DNA of 64,000 bases from Zoogloeaceae bacterium. GTDB taxonomy: Bacteria; Pseudomonadota; Gammaproteobacteria; Burkholderiales; Rhodocyclaceae. The notes below the pieces were generated by a model. The model worked only from the letters and a program-made list of their open reading frames with translations. It had not been told where the DNA came from and did no database searches. A program made the translations under genes and the position numbers. The stretch's first letter is position 1; the number at the start of each line of letters is the position of its first letter. Of this stretch, positions 23,176-46,329 are shown piece by piece. The DNA is taken from NCBI GenBank assembly GCA_031256795.1, contig JAIRPW010000013.1, positions 21,039 through 85,038 of the forward strand. The letters run 5' to 3'.

Positions 23176-23709
23176 TCAAGGAATGAAAAGGGAAAAACTT
23201 TTGGCATGATGAAAGTCCGGCGCGCCTGATTCAGGATGCTGCGCAGCATAATAAAGACAATGACCATCCGCGCGTTCCAGTACGGCAGACAGCGCCAAAC
23301 GAACCGGGAAACTCCCTCTCGGTAAAAGAAGCGTGGCGCGCAAAAGAAGACATTTCGCCGTGCGCGACCATTCCATATTCGGTACGACAGGAAAAGCCGC
23401 ACGCTCCTGCCGTTGCCGATACGCGGAAAAAGCGTATGCCGCCCACTGCCCAGAGGGAGAAAAATTGTATTCCCAATAAGAAGAACTTTCTTTGCGCCGC
23501 CAAAAAACCTCAAAGCAGCTATGCGCCCACAAACGATCCGCCTCCACCTGGTCAGCCGCACCGGGAATTCTGAGTACCGATAAATCGCCGAGAAGCTGAT
23601 AGGTCAGAGACAGCGCCTCACTTTCGCGCGCAACTTCAACGCGGATGCGCTGAATTTCCGCTTCGGCGTCTTGGTGTAGGCGCAAATCAATTACGCGCGA
23701 ATGTTTCAC
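23176..23709 (-). CDS. DOMON-like domain protein
   Basis: LWAHSCFEVF, YWEYNFSPSGQWAAYAFSAYR, PDFHH. Confidence 0.75.
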   Translation of the reverse strand: MKHSRVIDLRLHQDAEAEIQRIRVEVARESEALSLTYQLLGDLSVLRIPGAADQVEADRLWAHSCFEVFWRRKESSSYWEYNFSPSGQWAAYAFSAYRQRQERAAFPVVPNMEWSRTAKCLLLRATLLLPRGSFPVRLALSAVLERADGHCLYYAAQHPESGAPDFHHAKSFSLFIP

Positions 23710-23717
23710 ATGAAACC
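23702..23717. promoter_or_regulatory. parS site 1 (ParB-binding centromere)
   Basis: TGTTTCACATGAAACC versus consensus TGTTTCACGTGAAACA; overlaps the start codon of the DOMON gene. Confidence 0.75.
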
Positions 23718-23742: not shown

Positions 23743-23758
23743 GGTTTCACGTGAAACA
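23743..23758. promoter_or_regulatory. parS site 2
   Basis: GGTTTCACGTGAAACA contains the perfect 14-bp palindrome GTTTCACGTGAAAC. Confidence 0.85.
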
Positions 23759-26983: not shown

Positions 26984-27582
26984 ACACCTCCGATTCCATA
27001 TTCAAGTATTTGTTTTGAAATTTCCATTTTTGATTTCCCTTGTCGCAATTTTTTAGCCCAATTTCTACCAGGATGGATAGTATCCCATGATGAAATTTGC
27101 TGGTTGTATCTGCCACTACCAGGGTCGTGGTTTCCAAACCCATCAACAATAATATTCCAAAGTGGTTTTGTTCTTTCAATGAGTAAAGACTCGCCTAACG
27201 GGATCCAAATGTCATCAACAACTAAAAAGCGGCAATAAAAATTGTCAATACTTAAGTTTTCAGCCGCTTCAATAGATTTTCTATGCTCATTAAGCCGCTT
27301 GTAAAGATATTCACCGACAGGTATATCTAATTCAAGACCACCTTTGCGTCCGCCTTCTGGTATAGCTTTTCCTGCATAAATAGGTTGGACAAAATCTTTT
27401 TTATTTTTCTCGCTTATATTTTTGTAAAGTGGAAAATCGCCTTTATAATAAATGGCATAAATTCCAGCGCCGTTAAAAGACGGTAATTCCCTTAACGGAA
27501 AAACCTCTTTCTTGAAAATAGCGTCCGCGATGCTTACACCAAGGTTACGTTTGTCTAACGGGTTAAAAACTTCCGTGTCCAT
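26980..27582 (-). CDS. Eco29kI-family GIY-YIG restriction endonuclease
   Basis: [38 protein letters not shown]...DGFGNHDPGSGRYNQ; low GC. Confidence 0.85.
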   Translation of the reverse strand: MDTEVFNPLDKRNLGVSIADAIFKKEVFPLRELPSFNGAGIYAIYYKGDFPLYKNISEKNKKDFVQPIYAGKAIPEGGRKGGLELDIPVGEYLYKRLNEHRKSIEAAENLSIDNFYCRFLVVDDIWIPLGESLLIERTKPLWNIIVDGFGNHDPGSGRYNQQISSWDTIHPGRNWAKKLRQGKSKMEISKQILEYGIGGV

Positions 27583-28726
27583 AGTTTTTCCTTTTTGAAA
27601 AATATAAAGTCTTTCTAACAGAATCGGCAACAATAGCGCCGAGTTTCACCGGAACGGCATTGCCAATTTGCCGCATACTTTCTGTCCATGAGCAAGGGAA
27701 AAAGTAATCGTCGGGAAACGTTTGTATACGCGCCGCTTCCCGGATAGTTAAATAGCGGACAGCGCCATTATCCAGCACAATCATATTTTCACCGCCGGGG
27801 ACACCATGCGCTCCCGCCTTTATTGTTTTTGCGGGTTCGTCCATTGTGCTACCGGTGTGTCCGGGATAGACTTTTGCGCCATATTGAAATCTATGATTGT
27901 AATAATCATTGATCTCCATTGGGTTTGGTAAATCATGTATCGCGTCCCGCACTGTTACCCACGGTTTTTTTTCCGGCTGGTCAAACAGCGAAACATTAAC
28001 AGAATCAATTTTATGATGAAATTTAATGCTGTGTTTTTCCCAATATTCTTTAGTAATAAATTGGGTGTAATACAATGCTTCTGATGAATGTGTCGCGATG
28101 GGAAAAGTCCAGTTTCCGTTTATGTCGTTTCTGAAACCTACTATAAGCACACGCTCTCTTTTTTGCGGAACGCCGTAGTCGGCGGCATTTACTAAACGAA
28201 ACACAACATTATAAAAAAGACCCTTTTCATTTGCGCTTGTATGATATTTTTCAAGACGCGCCAAGTGGTCAATCCATTTTTCATTTTCTTTTTTCGTAAT
28301 TTCAGGATAGGTTAATTGCAAAATAATATATCCAAAATATTTTGAAAAACTTTTCCGTAATAGTCCACGGACGTTTTCAAAAATAAAAGCCTTAGGACGG
28401 ATTTCCGCAAGCGTCCGTGTCGCCTCAGAAAACAAATCGCGTTTGTCGTTATAGGCTTTATGCTTCCCGCCTATGGAAAATGGCTGACAGGGAGGGCCAC
28501 CGGAAAGCAAATCAATTTTATCCTGATAAGTGATAAAAGAAATATTATGAATATCATCATTAAATATCCATTCTTTTTTGTTATCAAACCCGAATTGTTT
28601 ATGATTATGGTGAAGCGTTTTTGCGGAATCCGCATCCCATTCAATAAGTTTGGTATGGGAAAAACCCGCATCGGCTACGCCCAACGCAAGTCCGCCGCCG
28701 CCCGCAAAAATTTCCAATGATTTCAC
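27563..28726 (-). CDS. C5-cytosine DNA methyltransferase (Eco29kI-type partner)
   Basis: [36 protein letters not shown]; low GC; GTG start overlaps the gatB TGA. Confidence 0.93.
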
Positions 28727-33863: not shown

Positions 33864-34748
33864 GTGAGCGAAAAATATCCGCCGCCACTTTTTCAGCACG
33901 GCCCAATGCCGTTGACGGTTCTGTTTTTTTATATTGCGCTTGCTGTCGCGCTCTTTGTGCTGGATTTCCGCTTTCATGCGATTGGTTTTTTGCGCCAGGG
34001 GATTTTTGTGCTGACGGTTCCCTTGCAGCGTTTGTCGCAAGTTCCCAAAAATTTTTTACTGGAGAGCAAGCGTTATTTTTATACTCTGGACAGCGCGCGA
34101 ACGGAAACTGAACGTCTGAAAGCTGCCGCGCTGGTTGCCGCCCTTGATCTCAATCGTGTCACGCAATTGAAATCAGAGAATGACAATTTGCGCGCGCTTT
34201 TGGAGTTACGGAGACGTGAGAAAGTCGGCGGTCAGGCGGCCAATGTGCTATATACCGCGCGCGATCCTTTTTCCCGGCGAGTGTACATTGACAAAGGAAG
34301 TCAGCAAGGCATACGAGAAGGATTACCGGTCATTGACAGCAAAGGCATTATCGGCCAGATTACGTTTACTTTCCCCTTTTCTTCGGAAGTCACTCTGCTC
34401 ACGGACAAAAGTCAGGCCATTCCGGTGCAAATTGAGCGCACCGGTCAGCGTTCAATTACCTTTGGTCTGGGCAACGGTCAAGTAGAATTACGGTATATGC
34501 CCAGCAATGCCGACGTTGTCATTGGTGATATTCTGCATACATCTGGCCTGGACGGTATCTATCCAGCAGGCTTTCAGGTTGCCCGCGTCACGCAGGTTGC
34601 GCGTGATAACGCTTATGCTTTTGCGCGCATCGTCGCAATGCCGCTGGCGGACGTAGAAGGGCATAATCTTGTAATGGTGCTGGATATTCAGGAAAAATCA
34701 CCGCTTCCGGTAGAGCAAAAAAATGCCGAAAATCGGGAGGATTATTAA
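33864..34748 (+). CDS. mreC: Rod shape-determining protein MreC
   Basis: ENDNLRALL, GDILHTSGLDGIYPAG; position after mreB. Confidence 0.92.
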   Translation: MSEKYPPPLFQHGPMPLTVLFFYIALAVALFVLDFRFHAIGFLRQGIFVLTVPLQRLSQVPKNFLLESKRYFYTLDSARTETERLKAAALVAALDLNRVTQLKSENDNLRALLELRRREKVGGQAANVLYTARDPFSRRVYIDKGSQQGIREGLPVIDSKGIIGQITFTFPFSSEVTLLTDKSQAIPVQIERTGQRSITFGLGNGQVELRYMPSNADVVIGDILHTSGLDGIYPAGFQVARVTQVARDNAYAFARIVAMPLADVEGHNLVMVLDIQEKSPLPVEQKNAENREDY

Positions 34749-34750
34749 CT

Positions 34751-35275
34751 ATGCAAACTCCCAATCATCAATCCAACCGAATTTTGCGCCCGGTACGCCC
34801 CTGGTTTATTGTACTGAGTATTCTGATTGCGCTTCTGCTCAATATGCTTCCGCCCCGGCAATGGCTCTTTATGCCGGATTGGGTATTGCTGACGTTGTGC
34901 TTTTGGAGTATCCGCGAGGGACAAAAAATCGGTATGGGCGTTGCTTTTTGCCTGGGGCTGTTTATGGATGTTGCCGATAGCGCGGCGCTAGGCCAACATG
35001 CGCTGGCCTACGTTATTGCCAGTTATACCGCCAGTGCTTTTTCCAAGCGGATTCTCTGGTTTTCTCTTCCGCTGCAGGCGCTGCATGTTTTCCCTATCTT
35101 TCTGGCGACCTCTGCGCTGCAAATTTTTATCCAACTTGTCGCGGGAAAGGATTTCCCTGGTTTTGCGCAATTTCTCCCTTCCTTTGTTGCCGCCGCGCTT
35201 TGGCCGCTGCTCAGTTTTTTTCTTTTATTGCCGCAATATCAGCCGGAATTCCGGGATGAAACCCGGCCTATTTAG
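34751..35275 (+). CDS. mreD: Rod shape-determining protein MreD
   Basis: PDWVLL, GLFMDV...LGQHALAY. Confidence 0.9.
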   Translation: MQTPNHQSNRILRPVRPWFIVLSILIALLLNMLPPRQWLFMPDWVLLTLCFWSIREGQKIGMGVAFCLGLFMDVADSAALGQHALAYVIASYTASAFSKRILWFSLPLQALHVFPIFLATSALQIFIQLVAGKDFPGFAQFLPSFVAAALWPLLSFFLLLPQYQPEFRDETRPI

Positions 35276-35301
35276 TCTGCTGTTTTTAATGGGATCGTTC
35301 C

Positions 35302-37248
35302 ATGAATGATTTTCATCATAAGCAGCGGGAGTTGGAGCGCTTTCGCAGACGGCTTTTATTGGCGCTGGCCTTTATTTTTTCCCTTTTTTGCGCGCTTTTT
35401 TCCAAATTATTTTATCTGCAAGTCTTGCGGCACGATCATTACACCACGCTTGCGGAAAGTAATCGTATTTCGCTGATCCCTATTATTCCAAATCGCGGGA
35501 ATATTTTAGACCGTAATGGCGTGATACTTGCGCGGAATTATTCCGCTTTTACCCTAGAAATTACGCCCTCTCAAATAGAAAATATAGATAAAACCATTGC
35601 GGCGCTTTCAGAAATCATAAAAATTGAGCCCAAGGACAGGAGGCGGTTTAATCGGCTTTTGCAGGAATCCAGAAACTTTGATTCCATCCCTATCCGCACG
35701 CAATTGTCGGATGAAGAGGTCGCCAGTTTCTCCGCTCGCCGCTATCGTTTCCCTGGTGTTGATATCAAGGCGCGCCTGTTTCGGGAATATCCCGAAGGGA
35801 ATGCTGCCGCACATGTTATTGGTTATATCGGGCGCATCAATCAAAAGGATGAGGAGTGGATCCGCGCGGAGTACCAAGAAAGCAATTATAAGGGGACGGA
35901 GCATATTGGTAAAATTGGTGTTGAACAGTTTTATGAATTTGAATTGCATGGGACTACGGGTTATGCGCAGTTAGAAATTGACGCCAATGGTCGCGCGGTG
36001 CAGATTTTAAGCAGTACCTCTGCCGTCCCTGGAAATAATTTGAAGTTAACTTTGGATATGGGATTGCAAAAAGTTGCGGAAAGCGCTTTCATAGATCGTC
36101 GAGGCGCGCTGGTAGCTTTAGATCCTAGAAACGGCGCCATTCTGGCTATGGTTTCCGCACCGACCTTTGACCCTAACCTTTTTGTGGATGGTATTCGCTC
36201 GGACGATTGGGAAGAACTGAATAATAATATTGATAAACCCATGCTGAATCGCGCTATTTACAGCGCTTATCCTCCAGGATCAACCTTTAAACCTATGATG
36301 GCAATGGCCGCCTTGACAGAAAAGAAAAGAACCCCGCAGCAAACCATTTATGATCCTGGTTACTTTATTTTTGGTAATCATCGTTTTTTGGATGACAAGC
36401 CTGGCGGACATGGTATTGTAGATATGATGACTTCCATTGTTGTGTCTTGCAATACTTATTACTACCAGCTTGCCGCAGATATGGGTATTGATTTAATAGC
36501 CCGTTTCATGGGAGGTCTTGGTTTAGGAAAGCGCACTGGAATTGATATTCCCGGAGAAAGTGACGGAATTTTACCTTCCCCGGAATGGAAGGAAAAACGC
36601 TTTAAGAAACCTGAACAACAAAAATGGTATGCGGGAGAAACTATTTCAGTAGGAATTGGGCAAGGATATAATGCGTATACGCCGTTGCAAATGGCGCACG
36701 CTTATGCCAACATATTAAATTATGGTAAAGTGTTTCGTCCGCATTTAGTTGATAGCATCAATAATCCCAGCACAAATGAAACGCGCACGCTTGAATATCC
36801 AATAACACGTCAAATCGCGCTTGATCCAAAGCATGTAGATTTCATTAAAAAAGCGATGGCGGGTGTTAATAAACAAGGCACTGGCGCGCGCGCGTTTGCC
36901 AATGCGCCCTATGAATCCGGAGGAAAAACAGGAACTGCTCAAGTTTTCAGTTTGCGCGGACAAAAATATGTTTCTGGGCGTTTGCGGGAGCGGTTGCGTG
37001 ACCATGCCTGGTTTATTGCGTTTGCGCCATTGGAAAACCCGACGATTGTAGCGGCAATACTGGTTGAAAACAGCGGATTTGGCGCGCAATATGCCGCGCC
37101 TATCGCCCGCCGGATTTTTGATTATTATCTTGCAGGAAAAGCTCCAGAAGGGGCGCTTGTGCCTGTAGAACCAGAAGAGGAAACTTTAGAAGGCGAAGCA
37201 GAAAAACACAATTCAGGAGAAAATCCTCATGCGCCCTCGCCGAATTAA
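35302..37248 (+). CDS. mrdA: Penicillin-binding protein 2
   Basis: PNRGNILDRNG, YPPGSTFK, SCN, GKTGTAQV. Confidence 0.95.
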   Translation: MNDFHHKQRELERFRRRLLLALAFIFSLFCALFSKLFYLQVLRHDHYTTLAESNRISLIPIIPNRGNILDRNGVILARNYSAFTLEITPSQIENIDKTIAALSEIIKIEPKDRRRFNRLLQESRNFDSIPIRTQLSDEEVASFSARRYRFPGVDIKARLFREYPEGNAAAHVIGYIGRINQKDEEWIRAEYQESNYKGTEHIGKIGVEQFYEFELHGTTGYAQLEIDANGRAVQILSSTSAVPGNNLKLTLDMGLQKVAESAFIDRRGALVALDPRNGAILAMVSAPTFDPNLFVDGIRSDDWEELNNNIDKPMLNRAIYSAYPPGSTFKPMMAMAALTEKKRTPQQTIYDPGYFIFGNHRFLDDKPGGHGIVDMMTSIVVSCNTYYYQLAADMGIDLIARFMGGLGLGKRTGIDIPGESDGILPSPEWKEKRFKKPEQQKWYAGETISVGIGQGYNAYTPLQMAHAYANILNYGKVFRPHLVDSINNPSTNETRTLEYPITRQIALDPKHVDFIKKAMAGVNKQGTGARAFANAPYESGGKTGTAQVFSLRGQKYVSGRLRERLRDHAWFIAFAPLENPTIVAAILVENSGFGAQYAAPIARRIFDYYLAGKAPEGALVPVEPEEETLEGEAEKHNSGENPHAPSPN

Positions 37249-38338
37249 ACTTTTTTTCTTCAGAATCGCCGCGCATCTTGATCCGGCCTTGATACTCATT
37301 GTTTTGTTTCTAATGAGTGTTGGTTTAGTTTGCGTATATTCAGCCAGTTATCCGGACAATATTACGCGCTTTAATAGCCAGATTATCAATATGATTCTAG
37401 CTTTTCTTCTGATGATTCTGGTCGCGCAAATTTCGCCACACAAGCTTATGCGTCTCGCGCCAATCTTTTATCTTGCGGGATTTATTTTACTCATAGCAGT
37501 AGATCGCTTTGGTGTTGTAGTCAATGGGTCAAGGCGCTGGATTTCCCTTTTTGGCATTATCCGCATTCAGCCTTCTGAGATTATGAAAATTGCTATGCCG
37601 ATGATTTTAGCCTGGTATTTTCATAAAAATGAATCTACGCTTACCTTAAAAACTTTTATTGTTTCCGGGATTTTGCTTATTTTACCTATTATATTTATTT
37701 TGAAACAGCCAGACTTGGGAACTTCTTTGTTGGTTGGCGCTGCGGGATTTTCTGTTATTTTTTTCGCGGGTTTGTCCTGGAAGATAATAATGGGATTTTG
37801 CGCTGGCGGATTGGCTATATTACCTTTTGTTTGGGAACGAATGCATGATTATCAGCGACGCCGGGTTTTGACTTTGTTCGATCCTTCTTCGGACCCTTTA
37901 GGCGCGGGGTATCATATTATTCAGTCGACAATCGCCATTGGCTCTGGAGGAGTTTTCGGCAAAGGTTGGCTGCATGGAACGCAAACGCACCTAAAATTTA
38001 TCCCTGAAAAGCATACTGATTTTATATTTGCCGTATTGGCGGAAGAATGGGGGATTATAGGATCAATTGTTCTATTATTCCTATTCTTCTGTTTAATTGT
38101 GCGCGGCTTGATGATTTCCTCTACCGCAACAACTTTATTTTCTCGCTTGCTGGCCGCTTCTATTTCCATGGTATTTTTTATTTATGCTTTTGTAAATATC
38201 GGCATGGTTTCCGGTTTTTTGCCTGTTGTAGGTGTTCCGCTTCCCTTTATTAGCTATGGCGGAACAGCATTGTTAACGCTTATGCTGGGCGTTGGCATTT
38301 TAATGAGCATCCAGACACACCGCACTTTGACAAAATGA
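37229..38338 (+). CDS. rodA: Rod shape-determining SEDS protein RodA
   Basis: IQPSEIMK, QPDLGT, PEKHTDFIF, GVPLPFISYGGT. Confidence 0.95.
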   Translation: MRPRRIKLFFFRIAAHLDPALILIVLFLMSVGLVCVYSASYPDNITRFNSQIINMILAFLLMILVAQISPHKLMRLAPIFYLAGFILLIAVDRFGVVVNGSRRWISLFGIIRIQPSEIMKIAMPMILAWYFHKNESTLTLKTFIVSGILLILPIIFILKQPDLGTSLLVGAAGFSVIFFAGLSWKIIMGFCAGGLAILPFVWERMHDYQRRRVLTLFDPSSDPLGAGYHIIQSTIAIGSGGVFGKGWLHGTQTHLKFIPEKHTDFIFAVLAEEWGIIGSIVLLFLFFCLIVRGLMISSTATTLFSRLLAASISMVFFIYAFVNIGMVSGFLPVVGVPLPFISYGGTALLTLMLGVGILMSIQTHRTLTK

Positions 38339-39306
38339 AAAAAATCATTCTTTTCAACCTTGCTTTTTTTCTTTGTTTCTGGCTTTCTGGATGTTCCGTC
38401 TTTTCGGGACGAGCGCCTTCTGGAAAGGTAGTGACGACTTCCGGTAGTTCCATAAAAGGCGGCGGCGGATATTATAAAGATGATGGTCCAGGAGATATAA
38501 TTCCCGAACAATTACAACTTATTCCTGACGCTATACCGCGTGTGGAGCCGCTGCATAAAGGCGCAAGCCGTCCTTATGTTGTTTTGGGAAAACAGTATGT
38601 CCCACAAACCCGCATTCAAAATTTTCGCCAGCAAGGGATTGCAAGCTGGTATGGAAAAAAATTTCATGGACAAAAAACGTCTATTGGCGAAACTTATGAC
38701 ATGTTTGCCATGACGGCGGCTCATCCAACGCTTGCTTTACCTTCCTATGCGCGCGTAACTAATCCGGCCAATGGGAAAAGTGTTGTTGTGCGCGTAAATG
38801 ACCGCGGTCCTTTTCACGCGGGGCGTATCATGGACCTTTCTTATACTGCTGCTTATAAACTGGGCTATATTGAAAATGGCAGTGGCTTGGTCATTGTGGA
38901 AAGTTTGCTTCCTGGCAGTCCGCTTTTTGAACGACTGGCTGCTGCGTCTTCTGTTTCCGCGCCTGTTTCTGCCGCGCCGGAACCTGATCGCGCCGCTTTG
39001 GACGCGCTTGCTCTGGAGTTACAGCGAGAAGAAATCCAGGATGCAGCTGCTTTTGCTTCTTCTTCAATAAAATCCAGAGGAATTTTTCTTCAACTGGGCG
39101 CCTTTTCACAATCCGAAAATGCGGAAAATTTAAAAAAATACCTGTTGCGCAATTTGGATTGGTTATCCGATCCTCTTTTTATTTATGCGGCGGATCAACT
39201 CTACCGCTTACAAATGGGACCTTATTCGGACCGTTTCACCGCGCAGTCCGTAGCTGAACGCATTCGAGATACTTTGGGTTACGCTCCTACATTCGTAACA
39301 CGCTGA
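38335..39306 (+). CDS. rlpA: Septal ring lytic transglycosylase lipoprotein RlpA (DPBB + SPOR)
   Basis: Lipobox LSGC, GIASWYG, TAAHPTL, VNDRGPF, C-terminal LQLGAFS SPOR domain. Confidence 0.92.
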   Translation: MKKIILFNLAFFLCFWLSGCSVFSGRAPSGKVVTTSGSSIKGGGGYYKDDGPGDIIPEQLQLIPDAIPRVEPLHKGASRPYVVLGKQYVPQTRIQNFRQQGIASWYGKKFHGQKTSIGETYDMFAMTAAHPTLALPSYARVTNPANGKSVVVRVNDRGPFHAGRIMDLSYTAAYKLGYIENGSGLVIVESLLPGSPLFERLAAASSVSAPVSAAPEPDRAALDALALELQREEIQDAAAFASSSIKSRGIFLQLGAFSQSENAENLKKYLLRNLDWLSDPLFIYAADQLYRLQMGPYSDRFTAQSVAERIRDTLGYAPTFVTR

Positions 39307-39309
39307 AAT

Positions 39310-40275
39310 TCAATGCGTTAAAAATTCAAATAGCGGCACAATAAGCGCGCCTGAAAACATGAATGTAAATTGTTTACCAAAGCATCGTGATTGTTTTTTA
39401 TGACCGGTTAAAATTACGTTTTGTGCCTTAGTATGAAGAAAATCCTGTCCATGCGCGCATTCCTCTCCATGACGCAGCATAGGAATTAAATCGGCAAGCG
39501 CGATATAAATAAAACTTGCGGCAGCGATTACCAAAATATAAGGCATAGAATTTTCCGCGTCCGCCATAAAAAAATAACCAAAAACTCCACCCAGTGCCGC
39601 TGTTAAACTGGAAAGCGCATTGGCAATAAACGCTTTCAGGCGTGAAAGACCACCATGTAACAATATAATAAAATCCCCCAATTCTTGCGGAATTTCATGC
39701 GCCATAATCGCAAAAGTAGCTGTAATACCTAAAAGCGGGCTTGCCAAAAAAGAAGCCGCAATTAAAATTCCATCCACAAAATTATGAAAACCATCTCCAA
39801 CCAAAATCAGAGGTACTACAGAGCTGACGCGCCTTGCAACCTCTTTTCCTTGCGAACTTTCCTCATTTTCCTCTTCCGTATGCGCATGTCGCCACAGCGC
39901 GAAGTGTTCCAGAATAAAAAAACTTAAAATTCCGACAAATAAAGTTACAAATAACGGATAAAGCCCGCCTCCATGCGTTTTTTCTGCTGCGCCTTCGCCC
40001 CTGTGTTCATGTGAAATATTTTGTTCACCAGCTTCCGCGCTCGCAAAAAAATCTGCGTTCACTTCCCTTGCTTCCAGAAAATGTTCCGCCGCTTCCGGCA
40101 AAATGTCCAGACAGGCGGTGGAGAGCATCACTCCCGCCGCAAAAGCAACCATTGCTGAACGAGCCGTCTGAGAAAGGCGAAAAGCAAGCAGCGCGGCTAA
40201 AGAAATGCTCAGCAAACCCGCGAGAAACGTTGCCAGCATGATCATGGAAAAAACAGACATATCGTTAAGCCACAT
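39310..40275 (-). CDS. ZIP-family zinc/metal permease
   Basis: AFAAGVML, His-containing loop, GDGFHNFVDG, HEIPQELGDF. Confidence 0.9.
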   Translation of the reverse strand: MWLNDMSVFSMIMLATFLAGLLSISLAALLAFRLSQTARSAMVAFAAGVMLSTACLDILPEAAEHFLEAREVNADFFASAEAGEQNISHEHRGEGAAEKTHGGGLYPLFVTLFVGILSFFILEHFALWRHAHTEEENEESSQGKEVARRVSSVVPLILVGDGFHNFVDGILIAASFLASPLLGITATFAIMAHEIPQELGDFIILLHGGLSRLKAFIANALSSLTAALGGVFGYFFMADAENSMPYILVIAAASFIYIALADLIPMLRHGEECAHGQDFLHTKAQNVILTGHKKQSRCFGKQFTFMFSGALIVPLFEFLTH

Positions 40276-40389
40276 GAAAACCTCCAAAAGTTAAACGGCT
40301 ATCCAGATCACACAAAAAATCTCGTTGCGGCAAAATGGCGAAACCATGAAGAAAGCCAGCGTTGCGCTGCTTTTATGCACAACGCTGGC

Positions 40390-40407
40390 AGGATGTTATA
40401 ACATTAC
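40390..40407. promoter_or_regulatory. Zur-box-like palindrome between the divergent ZIP and zur genes
   Basis: AGGATGTTATAACATTAC with perfect core palindrome ATGTTATAACAT (40393-40404). Confidence 0.65.
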
Positions 40408-40444
40408 AAATCAAAAGGCAATCCGTTTCAAGAAAGGAAGCAAA

Positions 40445-40933
40445 ATGTCAACGGAAAACAACGATTTTTTTGAACACAAGAAAAAAATACATATAAAAAA
40501 CAAAAAGTTAGAACACTATATTGAAGAAATTGACGCGCGCGCCAAAACGCAGAACGCAGCGCTAACCCCTGTTCGTCGGGCAGTACTTACGCTTCTCTTT
40601 TTACACCCGCAAGGACTGAAAGCTTATGAATTGCTAGAGAAAATCAAGGAAGAGCGCAGTAACGCCAAGCCAACTACCGTTTACCGGGCCCTGGATTTTC
40701 TGATGGCGCAAGGATTCGCGCACAAAATTGGGCGTAACAATCTTTTTGTGGCATGCCATCATGTCTCTCATTATTTGCCCAGCCTTTTTTTGGTATGCCC
40801 GAAATGCCGAACCGTTACCGAACTTTCCGCCATACCGTTAATGCAAATGCTGAAAACCGAAGTTGGGAACGCGGGATTTCAGCTTACCAGTCCCGAGGTG
40901 GAGATCAGCGCGCTTTGCCCTGCTTGCGCCTGA
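40445..40933 (+). CDS. zur: Fur-family regulator, Zur type
   Basis: LTPVRRAVL, AYELL, PTTVYRALDFL, CxxC pairs (CPKC, CPAC); divergent from the ZIP permease. Confidence 0.75.
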   Translation: MSTENNDFFEHKKKIHIKNKKLEHYIEEIDARAKTQNAALTPVRRAVLTLLFLHPQGLKAYELLEKIKEERSNAKPTTVYRALDFLMAQGFAHKIGRNNLFVACHHVSHYLPSLFLVCPKCRTVTELSAIPLMQMLKTEVGNAGFQLTSPEVEISALCPACA

Positions 40934-41240
40934 CGTCCTAATAGTATTGAGTATAAAAAATAAAAACGTAAACAATAAGGAAGAGAACTCTGTGGAAAAC
41001 TTTAAAACATTACTAAAAACATAGAGTTATGCTTACTTTGAAACGAGGAAAAGGAATAGAAAAAGCTGTGGAGAAAAAAGGGATACTTTTCGTTTTTCTT
41101 TTTTTCTCTAACTTACCCGCATTTTTTACAGAAATTTTCTATACGTTGTCCACAAGCGGAACGGAGATGAAATAGAACCCGCTGGAAAGAGACGGGCATG
41201 TGACTAGCGAGTTTCCGAGCATTTGCGGCGTCATACAAAC
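40934..41240. other. Candidate chromosomal replication origin (oriC)
   Basis: AT-rich gene-free gap; DnaA-box matches TGTGGAAAA 40991-40999, TGTGGAGAA 41067-41075, TTGTCCACA 41146-41154; GC-skew sign change across the region. Confidence 0.55.
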
Positions 41241-41242
41241 AA

Positions 41243-41270
41243 AAAACCCGCAGACAACGCTGCGGGTTTT
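41243..41270. terminator. Intrinsic (bidirectional-type) terminator
   Basis: AAAACCCGCAG-acaacg-CTGCGGGTTTT hairpin just downstream of the 41292-41738 gene. Confidence 0.8.
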
Positions 41271-41291
41271 GAAAATTGGTCCTTGCTGCGC

Positions 41292-41738
41292 TTAATCTTG
41301 GCGCTTGCTGCGTTTGATGGCTTCATCTACGTTAACTTCCTGGACAGGAGGTTTGTTGGGAAGCGCTTTTTTTGCGGGAGGAACTTTGGTTTCCTCTTCA
41401 TTTTTTTTGCGAACCAACGCTTCAACCCACAGGGAATCTCCGCCGTTCCAGGGCATGAAAATGCGCATGGAGACCCGCGCGGCTTCTTCCAGAAAGGGTT
41501 CTATATTGGCTTCAACCCGGGGCATCCAGGGGGAAAAAATGGACAACCAGTTTTTCCCGAATAGAGAAAGCGCGTCTTTTCCAGAATCGTCCGCTTTATT
41601 CATCGGCAGAGAAAACGCGGAAAACATGGAGGAAGACAACGGAGAAGACAAGGAAGAAAGCCAAAATTGGTTCATTTCCAGCCATGACTTTTGCAGGAGG
41701 CCAAAATAACCGCTCCAGATATTTTCCTCATTTTGCAT
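41292..41738 (-). CDS. Hypothetical protein
   Basis: 148-aa ORF filling the gap after queC, followed by a terminator; Trp/Ser-rich N-terminus and K/P-rich tail. Confidence 0.6.
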   Translation of the reverse strand: MQNEENIWSGYFGLLQKSWLEMNQFWLSSLSSPLSSSMFSAFSLPMNKADDSGKDALSLFGKNWLSIFSPWMPRVEANIEPFLEEAARVSMRIFMPWNGGDSLWVEALVRKKNEEETKVPPAKKALPNKPPVQEVNVDEAIKRSKRQD

Positions 41739-41857
41739 TTTTGTCTCCTGTGTAAAATTGGACGGACCAAGGATAGATGGCTAGTCTCCTGCATTGTAAC
41801 GCCCGTGTTGAATCTGAATGTGATTTTTTTACAATTGCCGTGGAAAAACCGTAAAAC

Positions 41858-42550
41858 TTATAACATAGACAACGTTACGTAAGATGTTGGGTCTGGGATT
41901 CCAGCGCGCAAAAAACCTTCGCGGCGTAAGCGACAAGCGTCACAAAGTCCGCATGCCTTGCCTGCTTCATCCGCCTGGTAGCAGGAAACGGCGATTTGAT
42001 AGTCTATGCCAAGTTCATACCCCTTACGGATAATATCTGCCTTGGAAAGGTGCAGAAGCGGCGCGTGAATGGTAATTTTTTTGCCCTCAACGCCTGCTTT
42101 GGTGGCCAAGTTGGCCAGACGTTCAAAAGCCGCGATATATTCAGGGCGGCAATCTGGGTAACCAGAGTAGTCAACGGCATTGACGCCGATAAAAATATCC
42201 CGGCAGTCCAGAGTTTCCGCCCAGGCCAGCGCGAAAGAAAGCAAGATGGTGTTGCGGGCGGGAACGTAAGTAGAAGGAATGCCTGCGCTTAAACCGTCTA
42301 TGGGTACGGAAAGCGCGCTGTCTGTGAGCGCGGAACCGCCGAACTGCGCGACGTCAATCACGAGAATTTTGTGTTGTGCCGCGCCATTTTTCATCGCGAT
42401 TTGCCTTGCGGCAGAAAGCTCAGCGCGATGCCGCTGCCCATAATCAAACGACAGGCAATGGAGGGAAAATCCGCTTTTCCGGGCAAGCGCGAGGCAGGTG
42501 GCGGAATCAAGGCCGCCGGAAAGCAAAATCACCGCTTTTTTCTGGCTCAT
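41858..42550 (-). CDS. queC: 7-cyano-7-deazaguanine synthase
   Basis: [26 protein letters not shown]...CGLCDAC. Confidence 0.95.
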
Positions 42551-42942
42551 ACGGAACGTTCCAGAGACTCAAATTCACGGAACAGCGCGGACTCGTCGCC
42601 AAGATTAAGTTCAACAACGCGGCGCAGCTGGGTAATGCTGTCCAGGTCAATTTCAGTACATTTCAAGCCAATATCCTGTCCGTTAACATGCGCGACTTCC
42701 ATCTGCATGAGAATTCCGGAGAATTCTTCCTCGTTTCCACTTTCTACTTCCCCGGAAAGATCAAGCGCAAGAGAGCAGGCCATACCGGGTTTTATGGAGG
42801 CGGCAGGCTCTGTGATTTGCACCAGAGCGCCCTGTAAGGAAATATCCAAAACTCGCGCGGCAAAGAGAGTTCCTTCCTGCAAACTTAATTCAGCCAGAGT
42901 ATCAAACTGAATGCGGGTAAAGCGGCGGCGATTGTTTTCCAT
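42547..42942 (-). CDS. Stand-alone PilZ-domain c-di-GMP receptor
   Basis: RRRFTRI (RxxxR) and DISLQG (DxSxxG); [11 protein letters not shown] tail. Confidence 0.85.
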
Positions 42943-42992
42943 ATTGTCCTCGAATCATGCGAATGGATTTTGCGCGGCGTTTGGGGAGGGAA

Positions 42993-43652
42993 TTATTTTC
43001 CGCGCATGTTACCCCATAGTACTTTGTGCAGTTGTATTTGCAGACGGGCAGACAGCCCGTCGGCCAGAATCCACTCTGCCAGCGTGCGGGCGTCCTGTCC
43101 GGGTTCTGCCGGGGAGAACCAAACCGGGCAGCGCCGGACAAGCGCCGGATAATCATGCAGAACCGCGCGCGCCCATTCGTAATCCGCGCGGTCGGCGATA
43201 ATGATTTTGACTTCGTCCTGGCTGTTGAGCGAGTCCAGATTTTCCCAGAGGTTTTTGTCCGCTTCTCCAGAAGAGGGCGGCTTTATATCCACGATGCGGG
43301 AAACGCGGGGATCAACCGCGTGAATAGGCAGGGCGCCGGATGTTTCCAGCGCCACTTCATAGCCCGCGTCCGCGAGCGAGGTCATCAAGGGAAAAGCGCT
43401 TTTTTGCGCGAGAGGCTCCCCGCCAGTCAGGCAAACCTGCCGGGTAGGATAAGGGCGGAGAGCGGCGAGAATTGCCTCAATGGACATGGGAGCGCCCCCA
43501 GTAAAAGCGTATGCGCTGTCACACCAACGGCAACGTAAAGGGCAGCCGGTCAACCGAATAAAGGCGGTCGGCTTGCCCATGCGAGAGGCTTCGCCCTGAA
43601 GCGAGAAAAAAATCTCGCTGACCTTGAGCGGCAAAACGCACATGCTGAACAA
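42993..43652 (-). CDS. queE: 7-carboxy-7-deazaguanine synthase (radical SAM)
   Basis: SEIFFSLQGE, GCPLRCRWCD, TGGEP, QLHKVLW. Confidence 0.93.
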   Translation of the reverse strand: MFSMCVLPLKVSEIFFSLQGEASRMGKPTAFIRLTGCPLRCRWCDSAYAFTGGAPMSIEAILAALRPYPTRQVCLTGGEPLAQKSAFPLMTSLADAGYEVALETSGALPIHAVDPRVSRIVDIKPPSSGEADKNLWENLDSLNSQDEVKIIIADRADYEWARAVLHDYPALVRRCPVWFSPAEPGQDARTLAEWILADGLSARLQIQLHKVLWGNMRGK

Positions 43653-43679
43653 TACGGGAGAGGTATACGGAAGACGCCG

Positions 43680-44447
43680 TTACTGACCGGCCAAACGCTT
43701 TTTAGCTTCTTTGGCCGCTTCTGAGGCGGGATATTTTTCCATAACTGTAGAAAGCGTTTTCCGGGCGGCGGCGGCATTGCCTAATTTTTGCTGACAGCTT
43801 GCGGCGGCAAGCAGGGCGTCTGGCGCGCGCGGCGCGTCTGGCCAGTTGCGCGCGACCGTCAATTGCGCGTCAATCGCCTCTTTGCATTTTCCTTGCGCAT
43901 ACCAGCTGTTTCCCAGCCAATACTGGGCGCTGGCGGCAATTTCGCTGTCTGGATAATCACGCGCGAGAATAGCGAAAGCCGCGCCGGCCTCCTTGTATTT
44001 TTGTTCCTTAAATTGCTGAATCGCCGCATCGTAGGCGCGGCCTATGGCGGAAAAATCCGCAGCGGAAATTGGTTTGGCGGGAAGAATGCCGTCTTTATCG
44101 TCGGCAGGCGCGCCAGAAGCGCCAGACGGATTCTCAAAACGCGCCAGACGGCTGTCCAGATCAAGATACAAATCCTGCTGACGTTTCTGCGCCTGGGCGT
44201 TTTCGTAGTGCAGTGTTTCAATTTCACCGCGCAGACGGGCGATTTCTTCCTTGAGTCCGATAATTTGGGTAGCCAATTCCAACTGCGCATTGCTCAAGGC
44301 GGAAATTTTCTGCTCGTAATCCTGTTTTATGGCGGTAATTTGCGCGCGCGCTTCATTGTCGTCAAAAAGCCCTGCCCGCGCGGGCAGGGGAAGGAAAACA
44401 AGCGCAAAAAAGCAGGCGGCAAGAACCGGAAAAACGGCGCGCGACAT
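43680..44447 (-). CDS. cpoB: Tol-Pal system protein CpoB/YbgF
   Basis: Signal peptide, coiled coil, TPRs (AQYWLGNSWY, APDALL); follows pal. Confidence 0.9.
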   Translation of the reverse strand: MSRAVFPVLAACFFALVFLPLPARAGLFDDNEARAQITAIKQDYEQKISALSNAQLELATQIIGLKEEIARLRGEIETLHYENAQAQKRQQDLYLDLDSRLARFENPSGASGAPADDKDGILPAKPISAADFSAIGRAYDAAIQQFKEQKYKEAGAAFAILARDYPDSEIAASAQYWLGNSWYAQGKCKEAIDAQLTVARNWPDAPRAPDALLAAASCQQKLGNAAAARKTLSTVMEKYPASEAAKEAKKRLAGQ

Positions 44448-44986
44448 CAAAATTCTCCAGAATACAAAAGGTCGGCGCGGCGATTTTCCGCCCAAGCGGC
44501 TTCATCGTGGCCTTCCGCGCGGGGCTTTTCCTCTCCCAGACTGACGGCCTCGATCTGGGATTCCTGCGCGCCCAGAAGCATCAGCATTTGCTTGACCGCT
44601 TCCGCGCGTTTTTGCCCCAAAGAAAGGTTATATTCGCGGCTGCCCCGCTCATCGGTGTTGCCCTGAATCAGGGTTTTGAATTGCGGGTTGGCGATGAGGA
44701 ACCGGGCGTGCGCGGTAACAAGCTCGCGGTATTCCTCCGCAATGTCGTAGCGGTCAAGCGCGAAGTAAATGCTGCGCCGTGAAAGCGGGCTGGAAGGGTC
44801 GGTCAGCGCCGAGGGCAATGTGGAAGAATTTATGCCGGAAGTCTCAATGGGCGCGATCTGCGCGCGGTCTTCCACAGGCGCTCCGGAAGTTTCAGCGGGC
44901 GCGCCGGTCGTTCCGCATCCAGATAAAAGGAAGAGGGAAAACGCGGCGGAAAGAAAGAAAAACAAAAAACGGGAAAATTTTTTCAT
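44447..44986 (-). CDS. pal: Peptidoglycan-associated lipoprotein
   Basis: Lipobox LSGC; GNTDERGSREYNLSLGQKRA; ENRRA. Confidence 0.95.
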   Translation of the reverse strand: MKKFSRFLFFFLSAAFSLFLLSGCGTTGAPAETSGAPVEDRAQIAPIETSGINSSTLPSALTDPSSPLSRRSIYFALDRYDIAEEYRELVTAHARFLIANPQFKTLIQGNTDERGSREYNLSLGQKRAEAVKQMLMLLGAQESQIEAVSLGEEKPRAEGHDEAAWAENRRADLLYSGEF

Positions 44987-45015
44987 CGTAAATACTCCGA
45001 AAATGGAGGGAAAAA

Positions 45016-46329
45016 CTAACGCGGGAAAGGGCTCCAGGCAGGCTCGCGCACGTCGCCCGCCGGAACGGAAAGCCGCTGGCGCACGCGCCCGTCAATGGAG
45101 ACGACGGAAAGCGTTCCGCGCCCGCCCATTTCCGTAGCCAGCACGATCATACGGCTGTTGGGCGCGAAGCTGGGGGATTCATCCTTACTGGAATCCGAGA
45201 GAATCTGTGTTTGGCGGCTGGCGAGATCCATGACTGCCAGACGGAAAGCGCCGTCTTGCCGGGTGATAAAGGCCAGGTTTTTCCCGTCCGGAGAAAGCGA
45301 CGGGGAGACGTTGTAATTTCCGGTGAAGGTGATGCGTTCCGCCATGCCGCCCTGCGCGGCGACACGGTAAATCTGCGGACTGCCGCCCCGGTCGGAGGTG
45401 AAGTAAATAAAAGCGTCGTCCGCAGAAAACTGCGGTTCAGTATCAATACCGGCGGAGTTGGAAAGGCGCGTCAGCCCGCCGCCATTCGCGTTGATCAGAT
45501 AAATTTGCGAATGCCCGTCGCGGGAGAGTACCAGCGCGATCCGGGTTCCGTCTGGCGACCAGGCGGGCGCGGAGTTGGAGCCTTTGAAATTGGCGAGCAC
45601 CTGTCGGGTTCCGGTGAGCAGGGAGTGTGAAAAGATGATCGGTTTTTTGTTTTCAAAGGAAACGTAAGCGATCCGGGTTCCGTCTGGCGACCAGGCGGGC
45701 GAAATGACGGGTTCGGAGGAAATCAGCGCGGTTTGCGCGTTATGGCCGTCGGCGTCGGCGATTTGCAGATGATAGCGTCCGGCTGTTTTCAGAACATACG
45801 CGATGCGCGTGGAAAATACGCCGCGCTCGCCGGTCAGCGTTTCATAAATGGTATCCGCGACGCGGTGTCCGGCGGCGCGAAGATGCGCGACGTCTGTCAA
45901 AAAGGCCGCGCCGGTAAGAGGCGCTTGGCGGGTGACGTCGTAAAGGCGAAAGCGGGCTTCAATTCGTCCAGAGGCGAGCGAAAGACTGCCGCCCGCAAAA
46001 GCGTCCGCGCCGCGTTCTTTCCACAGGGCATACTCAACCGGGGAGGATTCATCGGAGCGGACGCCTTCCGCGTTCACGACGCGAAAAAGGCCGCTTTGTT
46101 CCAGATCGCGGCGCGCGACGTCGGCGAGCGCCGCCCCTTGTTCAGCGCTTCCAGAAAGGACGCTGAAATCGGCGATGGCGACAGGAATTTGCCGCGCGCC
46201 CGATCCGGTGACTTCAATGGAAAGCTGTGCCTGAGCGGCGGGCGTCAGAAGGAGGATTCCCGCGCCCAGCCACAGCGGCGCGGCGCGAAGGAGGCGGAGA
46301 GCGGAAAAGACGGCGGCAAAACGGAGCAT
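45016..46329 (-). CDS. tolB: Tol-Pal beta-propeller protein TolB
   Basis: STRIAYV, PAWSPDG repeats, EPAWSP C-terminus. Confidence 0.95.
   Translation of the reverse strand: MLRFAAVFSALRLLRAAPLWLGAGILLLTPAAQAQLSIEVTGSGARQIPVAIADFSVLSGSAEQGAALADVARRDLEQSGLFRVVNAEGVRSDESSPVEYALWKERGADAFAGGSLSLASGRIEARFRLYDVTRQAPLTGAAFLTDVAHLRAAGHRVADTIYETLTGERGVFSTRIAYVLKTAGRYHLQIADADGHNAQTALISSEPVISPAWSPDGTRIAYVSFENKKPIIFSHSLLTGTRQVLANFKGSNSAPAWSPDGTRIALVLSRDGHSQIYLINANGGGLTRLSNSAGIDTEPQFSADDAFIYFTSDRGGSPQIYRVAAQGGMAERITFTGNYNVSPSLSPDGKNLAFITRQDGAFRLAVMDLASRQTQILSDSSKDESPSFAPNSRMIVLATEMGGRGTLSVVSIDGRVRQRLSVPAGDVREPAWSPFPR

Follow-up and report, generated by a model that had tools for sequence, protein, structure and literature searches.

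A candidate chromosomal replication origin set apart from dnaA in an uncultured betaproteobacterium of the Zoogloeaceae

The window analyzed here is a stretch of 64,000 nucleotides, positions 21039-85038 of the 98-kb contig C9 of a Zoogloeaceae bacterium (G000) whose draft genome of 2.11 Mb (57% GC, 99% complete) is divided into 51 contigs. The best matches of its QueC protein, at ~70% identity, come from Rhodocyclaceae-type betaproteobacteria. Genes were called by a simple codon model. From the left, gatB, gatA, and gatC on the minus strand are followed by mreB, mreC, mreD, a PBP2-like gene, rodA, and rlpA on the plus strand (mreC, mreD, and the PBP2-like gene being named from operon position alone) and then by a ZIP zinc transporter gene (-) and zur (+), after which an intergenic gap opens. 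To the right of the gap lie a gene for a 148-aa protein, queC, a PilZ gene, queE, ybgF, pal, and tolB, all on the minus strand. Since zur and the 148-aa gene both face the gap, it is convergent. The AT-rich gap that a first-pass annotation of this DNA had placed between zur and a small gene is present, and its gene names waaF, gatB, tolB, ileS, and zur are confirmed; zur was identified correctly but starts at 40445, not at 40325. The small gene, which has no Pfam match, was taken for an orphan, yet homologues with 29 to 50% identity occur in 14 of 18 congeners. Its intrinsic terminator, at the right edge of the gap, is outside the origin core described below. A separate assembly, made from one sequencing run (SRR14710896), agrees at 100% identity with window positions 37908-45565, that is, across the gap junction, where misassembly had been named as a possible source of the signal; therefore, the join is no artifact of coassembly or binning, which argues against a chimeric join.

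About 210 bp of the gap are 65 to 82% AT. Three single-mismatch DnaA boxes, two reverse and one forward, had been reported to flank a T-rich run in it, and the sequence and a pattern search return exactly these (B1, B2, and B5 in Table 1). All three are of the form TTNTCCACA and fall within 164 bp, whereas the perfect consensus box, TTATCCACA, is absent from the G000 gap. Genome-wide, 9-mers of the TTNTCCACA type number 80, and the gap is one of three 400-bp stretches in the whole genome with at least three boxes; another is the C34 cluster (Table 1), and the third falls within an rpoD-like gene, so named by eye. Dinucleotide-preserving shuffles of the gap contain 0.053 boxes on average, and none of 20,000 shuffles has three or more. 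A further box position, B4, lies directly upstream of B5 and is degenerate or lost in G000. Judged from base composition and position, the AT-richest stretch, beside B1, would most likely be the DNA-unwinding element; the T-rich tract between the two box arrays, whose T run is conserved in an alignment of 18 species, could be the place of unwinding instead. The gap yielded no significant Rfam match, no IHF consensus, and, on direct reading, no GATC, and the single-stranded DNA folding of the region is unremarkable (z = -0.52). Triplets resembling a DnaA-trio (AAC AAC AAG) stand beside B1; no claim is made for them.

Table 1. Features of the candidate origin region and related elements of the G000 genome. 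Coordinates are window positions unless a contig is given.
Feature	Coordinates	Strand	Description
parS-like pair, TGTTTCACATGAAACC and GGTTTCACGTGAAACA	23702-23717 and 23743-23758		17 kb from the gap
zur	40445..40933	+	Left neighbor of the gap, transcribed toward it; NCBIfam Zur match; 162-aa call from an independent contig
Candidate oriC region (intergenic gap)	40934..41291		358 bp, 38% GC versus 57% for the genome; from the ORF map and sequence
AT-richest stretch	40936..40985		Up to 82% AT (40940-40979), beside B1; includes conserved block ACGnnAACnAAnAAG
Conserved oriC core (candidate)	40965..41169	+	~190-205 nt; five DnaA-box positions in two inward-facing arrays
DnaA box B1, TTTTCCACA	40991..40999	-	One mismatch; genus consensus TTATCCACA
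DnaA box B2, TTCTCCACA	41067-41075	-	One mismatch; with conserved extension, 41065..41091, GCTGTGGAGAAAAAAGGGATACTTTTC on the + strand
T-rich tract	41087..41110		Between the box arrays
DnaA-box position B3, TTACCCGCA	41113..41121	+	Degenerate, 2 mismatches; genus consensus TTATCCACA/TTATCCAGA
DnaA box B5, TTGTCCACA	41146..41154	+	One mismatch; congeners have TTTTTCACA or TTTTCCACA
Intrinsic terminator of the 148-aa gene	41243..41270	-	Right gap edge; 11-bp perfect stem, 6-nt loop, T run
148-aa genus-restricted gene	41292..41738	-	Right neighbor of the gap, transcribed toward it
DARS-like core	C34:10343-10377		TTATCCACA, 5 bp, TGTGGATAA, 3 bp, TGTGGACAA; upstream of a priA-like gene (by eye)
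Second DARS-like core	C35:82962-82996		Upstream of an xseA-like gene (by eye)

The contig also switches composition here. The first-pass annotation had counted G and C by hand in four 60-nucleotide samples from waaF, gatB, tolB, and ileS; its counts are exact and give skews of -0.278, -0.135, +0.125, and +0.444, respectively. Gene-wise GC skew in G000 is approximately 0.06 times the coding strand plus 0.06 times the replication direction, and subtracting the coding term places the best change point of C9 at 40933|41292, that is, at the gap, with a posterior of 0.70 in a Gaussian change-point model. At four-fold-degenerate sites, where leading genes have a skew of +0.21 and lagging genes one of -0.03, the posterior is divided between 40287|40325 (0.45) and 40933|41292 (0.37). 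By both measures, about 95% of the posterior lies within 39.3 to 41.9 kb in a model that treats genes as independent; because orthologue comparisons reveal gene-specific offsets, the true interval is somewhat wider. The claim that the flip holds regardless of coding strand is thus sustained by both the strand-corrected and the four-fold-site analysis. The expected cumulative minimum near 41 kb fared less simply: the raw cumulative-skew minimum of C9 is at ~33.1 kb of the window, where gatC and mreB diverge, and it moves to the gap once the coding-strand term is removed. Octamers with strand bias flip between 32 and 44 kb, a coarse result that agrees with the gap. Compared to a model with no switch, the log-likelihood rises by 30.5 for C9 and by no more than 12.3 for each of the other contigs, making this the strongest origin-type skew switch among the 51 contigs, and the 62 kb to its left and the 36 kb to its right each behave as one replichore, with four-fold-site skew fully developed on both sides.

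Weaker origin-type switches occur elsewhere in the genome. Those on C50 (~10 kb), C17 (~22.5 kb), C6, and C47 are without DnaA boxes and are probably boundaries of rearrangements or genomic islands. C34 is likewise among the contigs with a weaker switch of this type.

Is the gap conserved? A direct nucleotide search of relatives with the gap gave no useful match, a search with a 21-nt motif at 3 mismatches returned matches at background level only, and a Zur protein search of the JGI metagenomes found nothing. Synteny gave no direct answer, the gene order round the gap being scrambled among congeners. When the genus was searched for box pairs with the spacing seen in the gap, a locus in a congener (G014:C70) emerged that is colinear with it: 107 of 203 columns are identical, gaps occur in only 3 columns, and the box spacings are 76 nt in G000 and 77 nt in G014 and, from B2 to B3, 46 nt in both. 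Among the bases flanking B2, which were outside the search pattern, 14 of 17 are identical. A sequence-only profile built from these two sequences (profile R1) has one significant match in G000, at C9:62003-62207 in contig coordinates (E value of 1.6e-47), and near-full-length matches in 20 of 22 congeners (E values of 2.6e-19 to 4.5e-5), single in most of them. An alignment of 18 species (A5) is colinear over ~190 nt with five conserved box positions. In the genus consensus, B1 (TGTGGATAA) and B2 (TGTGGATGA) have one orientation and B3 (TTATCCACA or TTATCCAGA), B4 (TTGTGCACA), and B5 (TTTTTCACA) the opposite one. Two copies of the core lie on one contig in two congeners, ~1.4 kb apart in G008 (C48:103-286 and 1476-1662) and ~0.3 kb apart in G013 (C10:69819-70007 and 70147-70343).

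A gap of this kind might be nothing but an AT-rich spacer that arose by chance, or what is left of a DNA insertion, with functionless box-like 9-mers. AT-rich motifs are favored in AT-rich DNA, the region is inside an 8-kb GC trough, and zip-zur is missing from the two closest congeners; but shuffles that keep the gap's own composition never reach three boxes, relatives that bear zip-zur have no gap after zur, and conservation of the core in 20 of 22 congeners already contradicts this explanation, to which we assign a negligible probability. Because the zip-zur-bearing relatives lack such a gap, it does not travel with these two genes, and the idea that it is part of a zip-zur cassette was rejected on the contexts of the closest Zur homologues, none of which shows a gap after zur. 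The two closest congeners have a terminator and then other genes after the 148-aa gene, with no gap at the syntenic place, meaning that the site is also a synteny breakpoint.

The immediate neighbors of the core differ from species to species. It is directly downstream of gyrB in G012 and G031, beside an MTAP-like gene in G014, beside zur in G000, and ~6 kb past gyrB in G013, where the dnaA-dnaN-gyrB cluster is intact. Profile R1 finds no match in the first 304 bp past gyrB of G000, the place that the core occupies in G012 and G031. In congeners with enough sequence on both flanks, GC skew, raw and uncorrected for gene strand, turns at the core. In G031, all five 4-kb bins to its left are negative and all five to its right positive; G013 and G014 also turn from negative to positive at the core, G012 does so with more noise, and G009 is negative to the left and mixed to the right. 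These agreements are meaningful because an origin-type switch keeps its sign on either strand of a contig. In both G000 and G031, the switch lies within ~1 kb of the core.

Beyond the genus, a second profile (R2), made from the core sequences of 18 species, matches 22 of 61 genomes of the same order, and in three of them (G065, G078, and G046) the match fills the spacer between confirmed dnaA and dnaN genes. The matches in dnaA-dnaN spacers indicate that the core of the gap and the canonical origin region of the order are orthologous, the former having moved away from its usual neighbors. In a near-complete genome of the order (G030), the skew minimum falls in the dnaA-dnaN spacer, which holds five boxes; profile R2 gave no match on 400 kb of this genome, although its origin is evident from skew and boxes. 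Since the three-box pattern of the gap is not specific to relatives, it was used for calibration only. The three-box syntax of the gap is shared by 80 metagenome loci; dnaA or dnaN is within 1.5 kb in 51 of them and in 17 of the 22 that extend for 3 kb or more on each side. Origins are therefore predicted well by this syntax. These loci have a median of 10 boxes and a minimum of 4, compared to 3 in the G000 gap, none of them perfect. A perfect box is absent from 8 of the 80 loci, and 4 of those 8 adjoin dnaA or dnaN.

Where are the usual landmarks of an origin in G000? The first-pass annotation had noted that dnaA, dnaN, and gidA are missing from the window, and none of them is found on the whole of contig C9 either. 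The dnaA gene is on C45, between glyS-like and ettA-like genes, and dnaN-gyrB is on C36, beside a typA-like gene (these neighbors were named by eye from translations); parAB is on C13 and mnmG on C20. The candidate origin is accordingly linked to none of dnaA, dnaN, gyrB, parAB, and mnmG. Linkage to such indicator genes is a usual association of oriC and is not required. The surroundings of dnaA and dnaN, where a skew switch would have spoken for an origin at dnaA, have no DnaA boxes and no switch, and their upstream regions are GC-rich. Upstream of dnaN, dnaA is kept in 4 of 19 congener loci and absent from 15 (16 of 20 species when G000 is counted).

A pair of parS-like sites is found on the same contig as the candidate origin (Table 1). 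No other 16-mers of the genome that come within 1 to 2 mismatches of parS occur as a pair, and these two are its only good parS-like sites; by simple arithmetic, ~0.02 sites would be expected by chance at a maximum of 1 mismatch. The sites, 41 bp apart, are flanked by a gene of unknown function encoding 177 aa (-) and by ilvE (+), and parAB is far away on C13. Because the origin domain is where parS sites are normally found (PMC7022226), the pair, read from its sequence, would mark C9 as origin-proximal.

The skew switch could in principle be the breakpoint of a large rearrangement, the core being a relic or a nonfiring copy and the active origin residing elsewhere, either on a different contig or in a gap of the assembly. 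We consider this improbable, given that profile R1 gives one significant copy in G000 and none in the 304 bp past gyrB, that four-fold-site skew is fully developed over 62 kb and 36 kb, that the same core marks the switch in four other species, and that the parS-like pair is nearby. These observations have to be set against a break in gene order at the gap relative to the two closest congeners, the degenerate boxes of the G000 copy, the several weaker origin-type switches on other contigs, and an assembly in 51 pieces.

Other clusters of DnaA boxes exist in G000, and they bear on whether the core might be a locus that titrates or regulates DnaA (datA-like or DARS-like) and is merely near the true origin. 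The clusters with perfect boxes on C34 and C35 are built as the core of DARS1 and DARS2 of Escherichia coli, where 5 bp separate the oppositely oriented boxes I and II and box III points the same way as box II (PMC6868365). This DARS-like core is 90 to 100% conserved across the genus and the order, with approximately two copies per genome. The equivalent of the C34 cluster in G030 lies 45 kb from a skew minimum that is itself in the dnaA-dnaN spacer; therefore, the C34 cluster is DARS-like and not an origin. Both clusters were rejected as origins on these grounds (syntax, copy number, and distance from the skew minimum in G030). Two more box clusters were discarded: the one on C4 is inside an rpoD-like gene (recognized by eye) and was put down to chance, and the one on C14 is inside an AT-rich coding island that the gene caller had missed. 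The conserved cores suggest that DnaA-reactivating sequences exist in betaproteobacteria. In G030, eight DnaA boxes on one strand with a period of ~177 bp start at a DARS-like core (C2:588840-590100, loci L174 and L188), 45 kb from the skew minimum, and may form a datA-like titration array; several congeners have weaker arrays, with one box at +177.

Non-origin box clusters thus do occur in this lineage, as the three-box cores on C34 and C35 and the eight-box cluster of G030 illustrate. Still, distances of 67 and 70 nt separate the three boxes of the gap, unlike the 5-bp spacer of the DARS core (PMC6868365), no IHF consensus is found in the gap, the core occupies the dnaA-dnaN spacer in related families, and the skew switch coincides with it, to ~1 kb, in both G000 and G031. 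A titrating or regulating role of the core, with the origin somewhere near, is on these counts very unlikely. DARS1 and DARS2 resemble the gap in being noncoding clusters of DnaA boxes, but their syntax is met at C34 and C35 and not in the gap.

The interpretation that we favor, with a probability of roughly 0.87, is that the gap is the chromosomal, DnaA-dependent oriC of G000 and that its core is the relocated orthologue of the dnaA-dnaN spacer element. An oriC had been suggested by the first-pass annotation, and the suggestion gains support from the genus-wide single-copy core, from skew minima in other species, and from homology to dnaA-dnaN spacers. During its history, the core would have been separated from dnaA within the genus and in G000 from dnaN-gyrB as well, so as to lie now between the 3' ends of zur and the small gene. 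DnaA would bind the two facing box arrays (B1 and B2 versus B3 to B5), oligomerize, and open AT-rich DNA next to them, most probably the segment of 82% AT to the left of B1, and two forks would then depart from the gap in opposite directions. As a counterpoint, the mreB-rlpA and tolB-queC operons are transcribed toward the gap and hence head-on to the forks expected from such an origin.

How does this candidate compare to known origins? [quoted passage not shown] It differs from the canonical form in being unlinked to indicator genes, in occupying a convergent gap, and in having three good boxes, none of them perfect. The oriC of E. coli is at the gidA-mioC locus, ~42 kb from dnaA, and resembles the gap in being unlinked to dnaA and in its compactness, the last box being ~220 bp away from the AT-rich edge. 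In both, an AT-rich segment stands beside a box in the TGTGGAnAA orientation and the boxes at the far end are opposite, as are the E. coli boxes R1 and R4. The G000 gap differs from E. coli oriC by the lack of GATC, of an IHF consensus, and of recognizable 13-mer repeats and by fewer boxes and other neighbors. Origins beside hemE in Caulobacter and the Rickettsiales and beside hemB in the Chlamydiae also lie away from dnaA and are recognizable by skew and boxes (PMC4009838). Those placements are stable across whole classes, whereas the neighbors of the core in the genus of G000 vary by species. Since dnaA-unlinked origins are well known, the novelty here is modest: it would be a usual DnaA-dependent oriC in an unusual place. 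The changing neighborhood of one core within a genus is the part worth following.

The core is found in varied neighborhoods, and skew is arranged round it in each species examined, which suggests that the origin could be a portable module in this genus, either through repeated relocation of a functional oriC or through repeated reshuffling at the origin, over short evolutionary distances. We offer this reading tentatively, as possible but rather doubtful. The genus would in any case provide a natural series for how origins change place while the chromosome stays viable. For G000 itself, the analysis would fix the origin of an uncultured betaproteobacterium in which dnaA, dnaN, gidA, and parAB all mislead, and the core profile would locate the origin in 20 further draft genomes. 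Without the position of the origin, automatic origin prediction, coverage-based estimates of growth rate, and replichore-aware analyses of the genus would go wrong.

Several minor features of the window were recorded. In the divergent promoter of zip-zur, a Zur-box-like palindrome (ATGTTATAACAT, 40393-40404), a motif also present in two related MAGs, lies 12 bp downstream of a TTATGCACA box (40373-40381). A DNA cytosine-5 methyltransferase gene (27563-28726) is in an island of 41% GC between LPS core genes and gatB, which is probably acquired DNA. The GC trough of 8 kb (window positions 34500-42000), with 42 to 47% GC against 57% for the genome, spans the PBP2-like gene, rodA, and rlpA and abuts the candidate origin. 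Its genes have a third-codon-position GC of 0.37 to 0.41, compared to 0.6 to 0.9 in congeners; since their pairwise identities are normal within the genus, they are vertically inherited rather than foreign, and AT enrichment over mrdA-rodA-rlpA may be the mutational footprint of a new origin.
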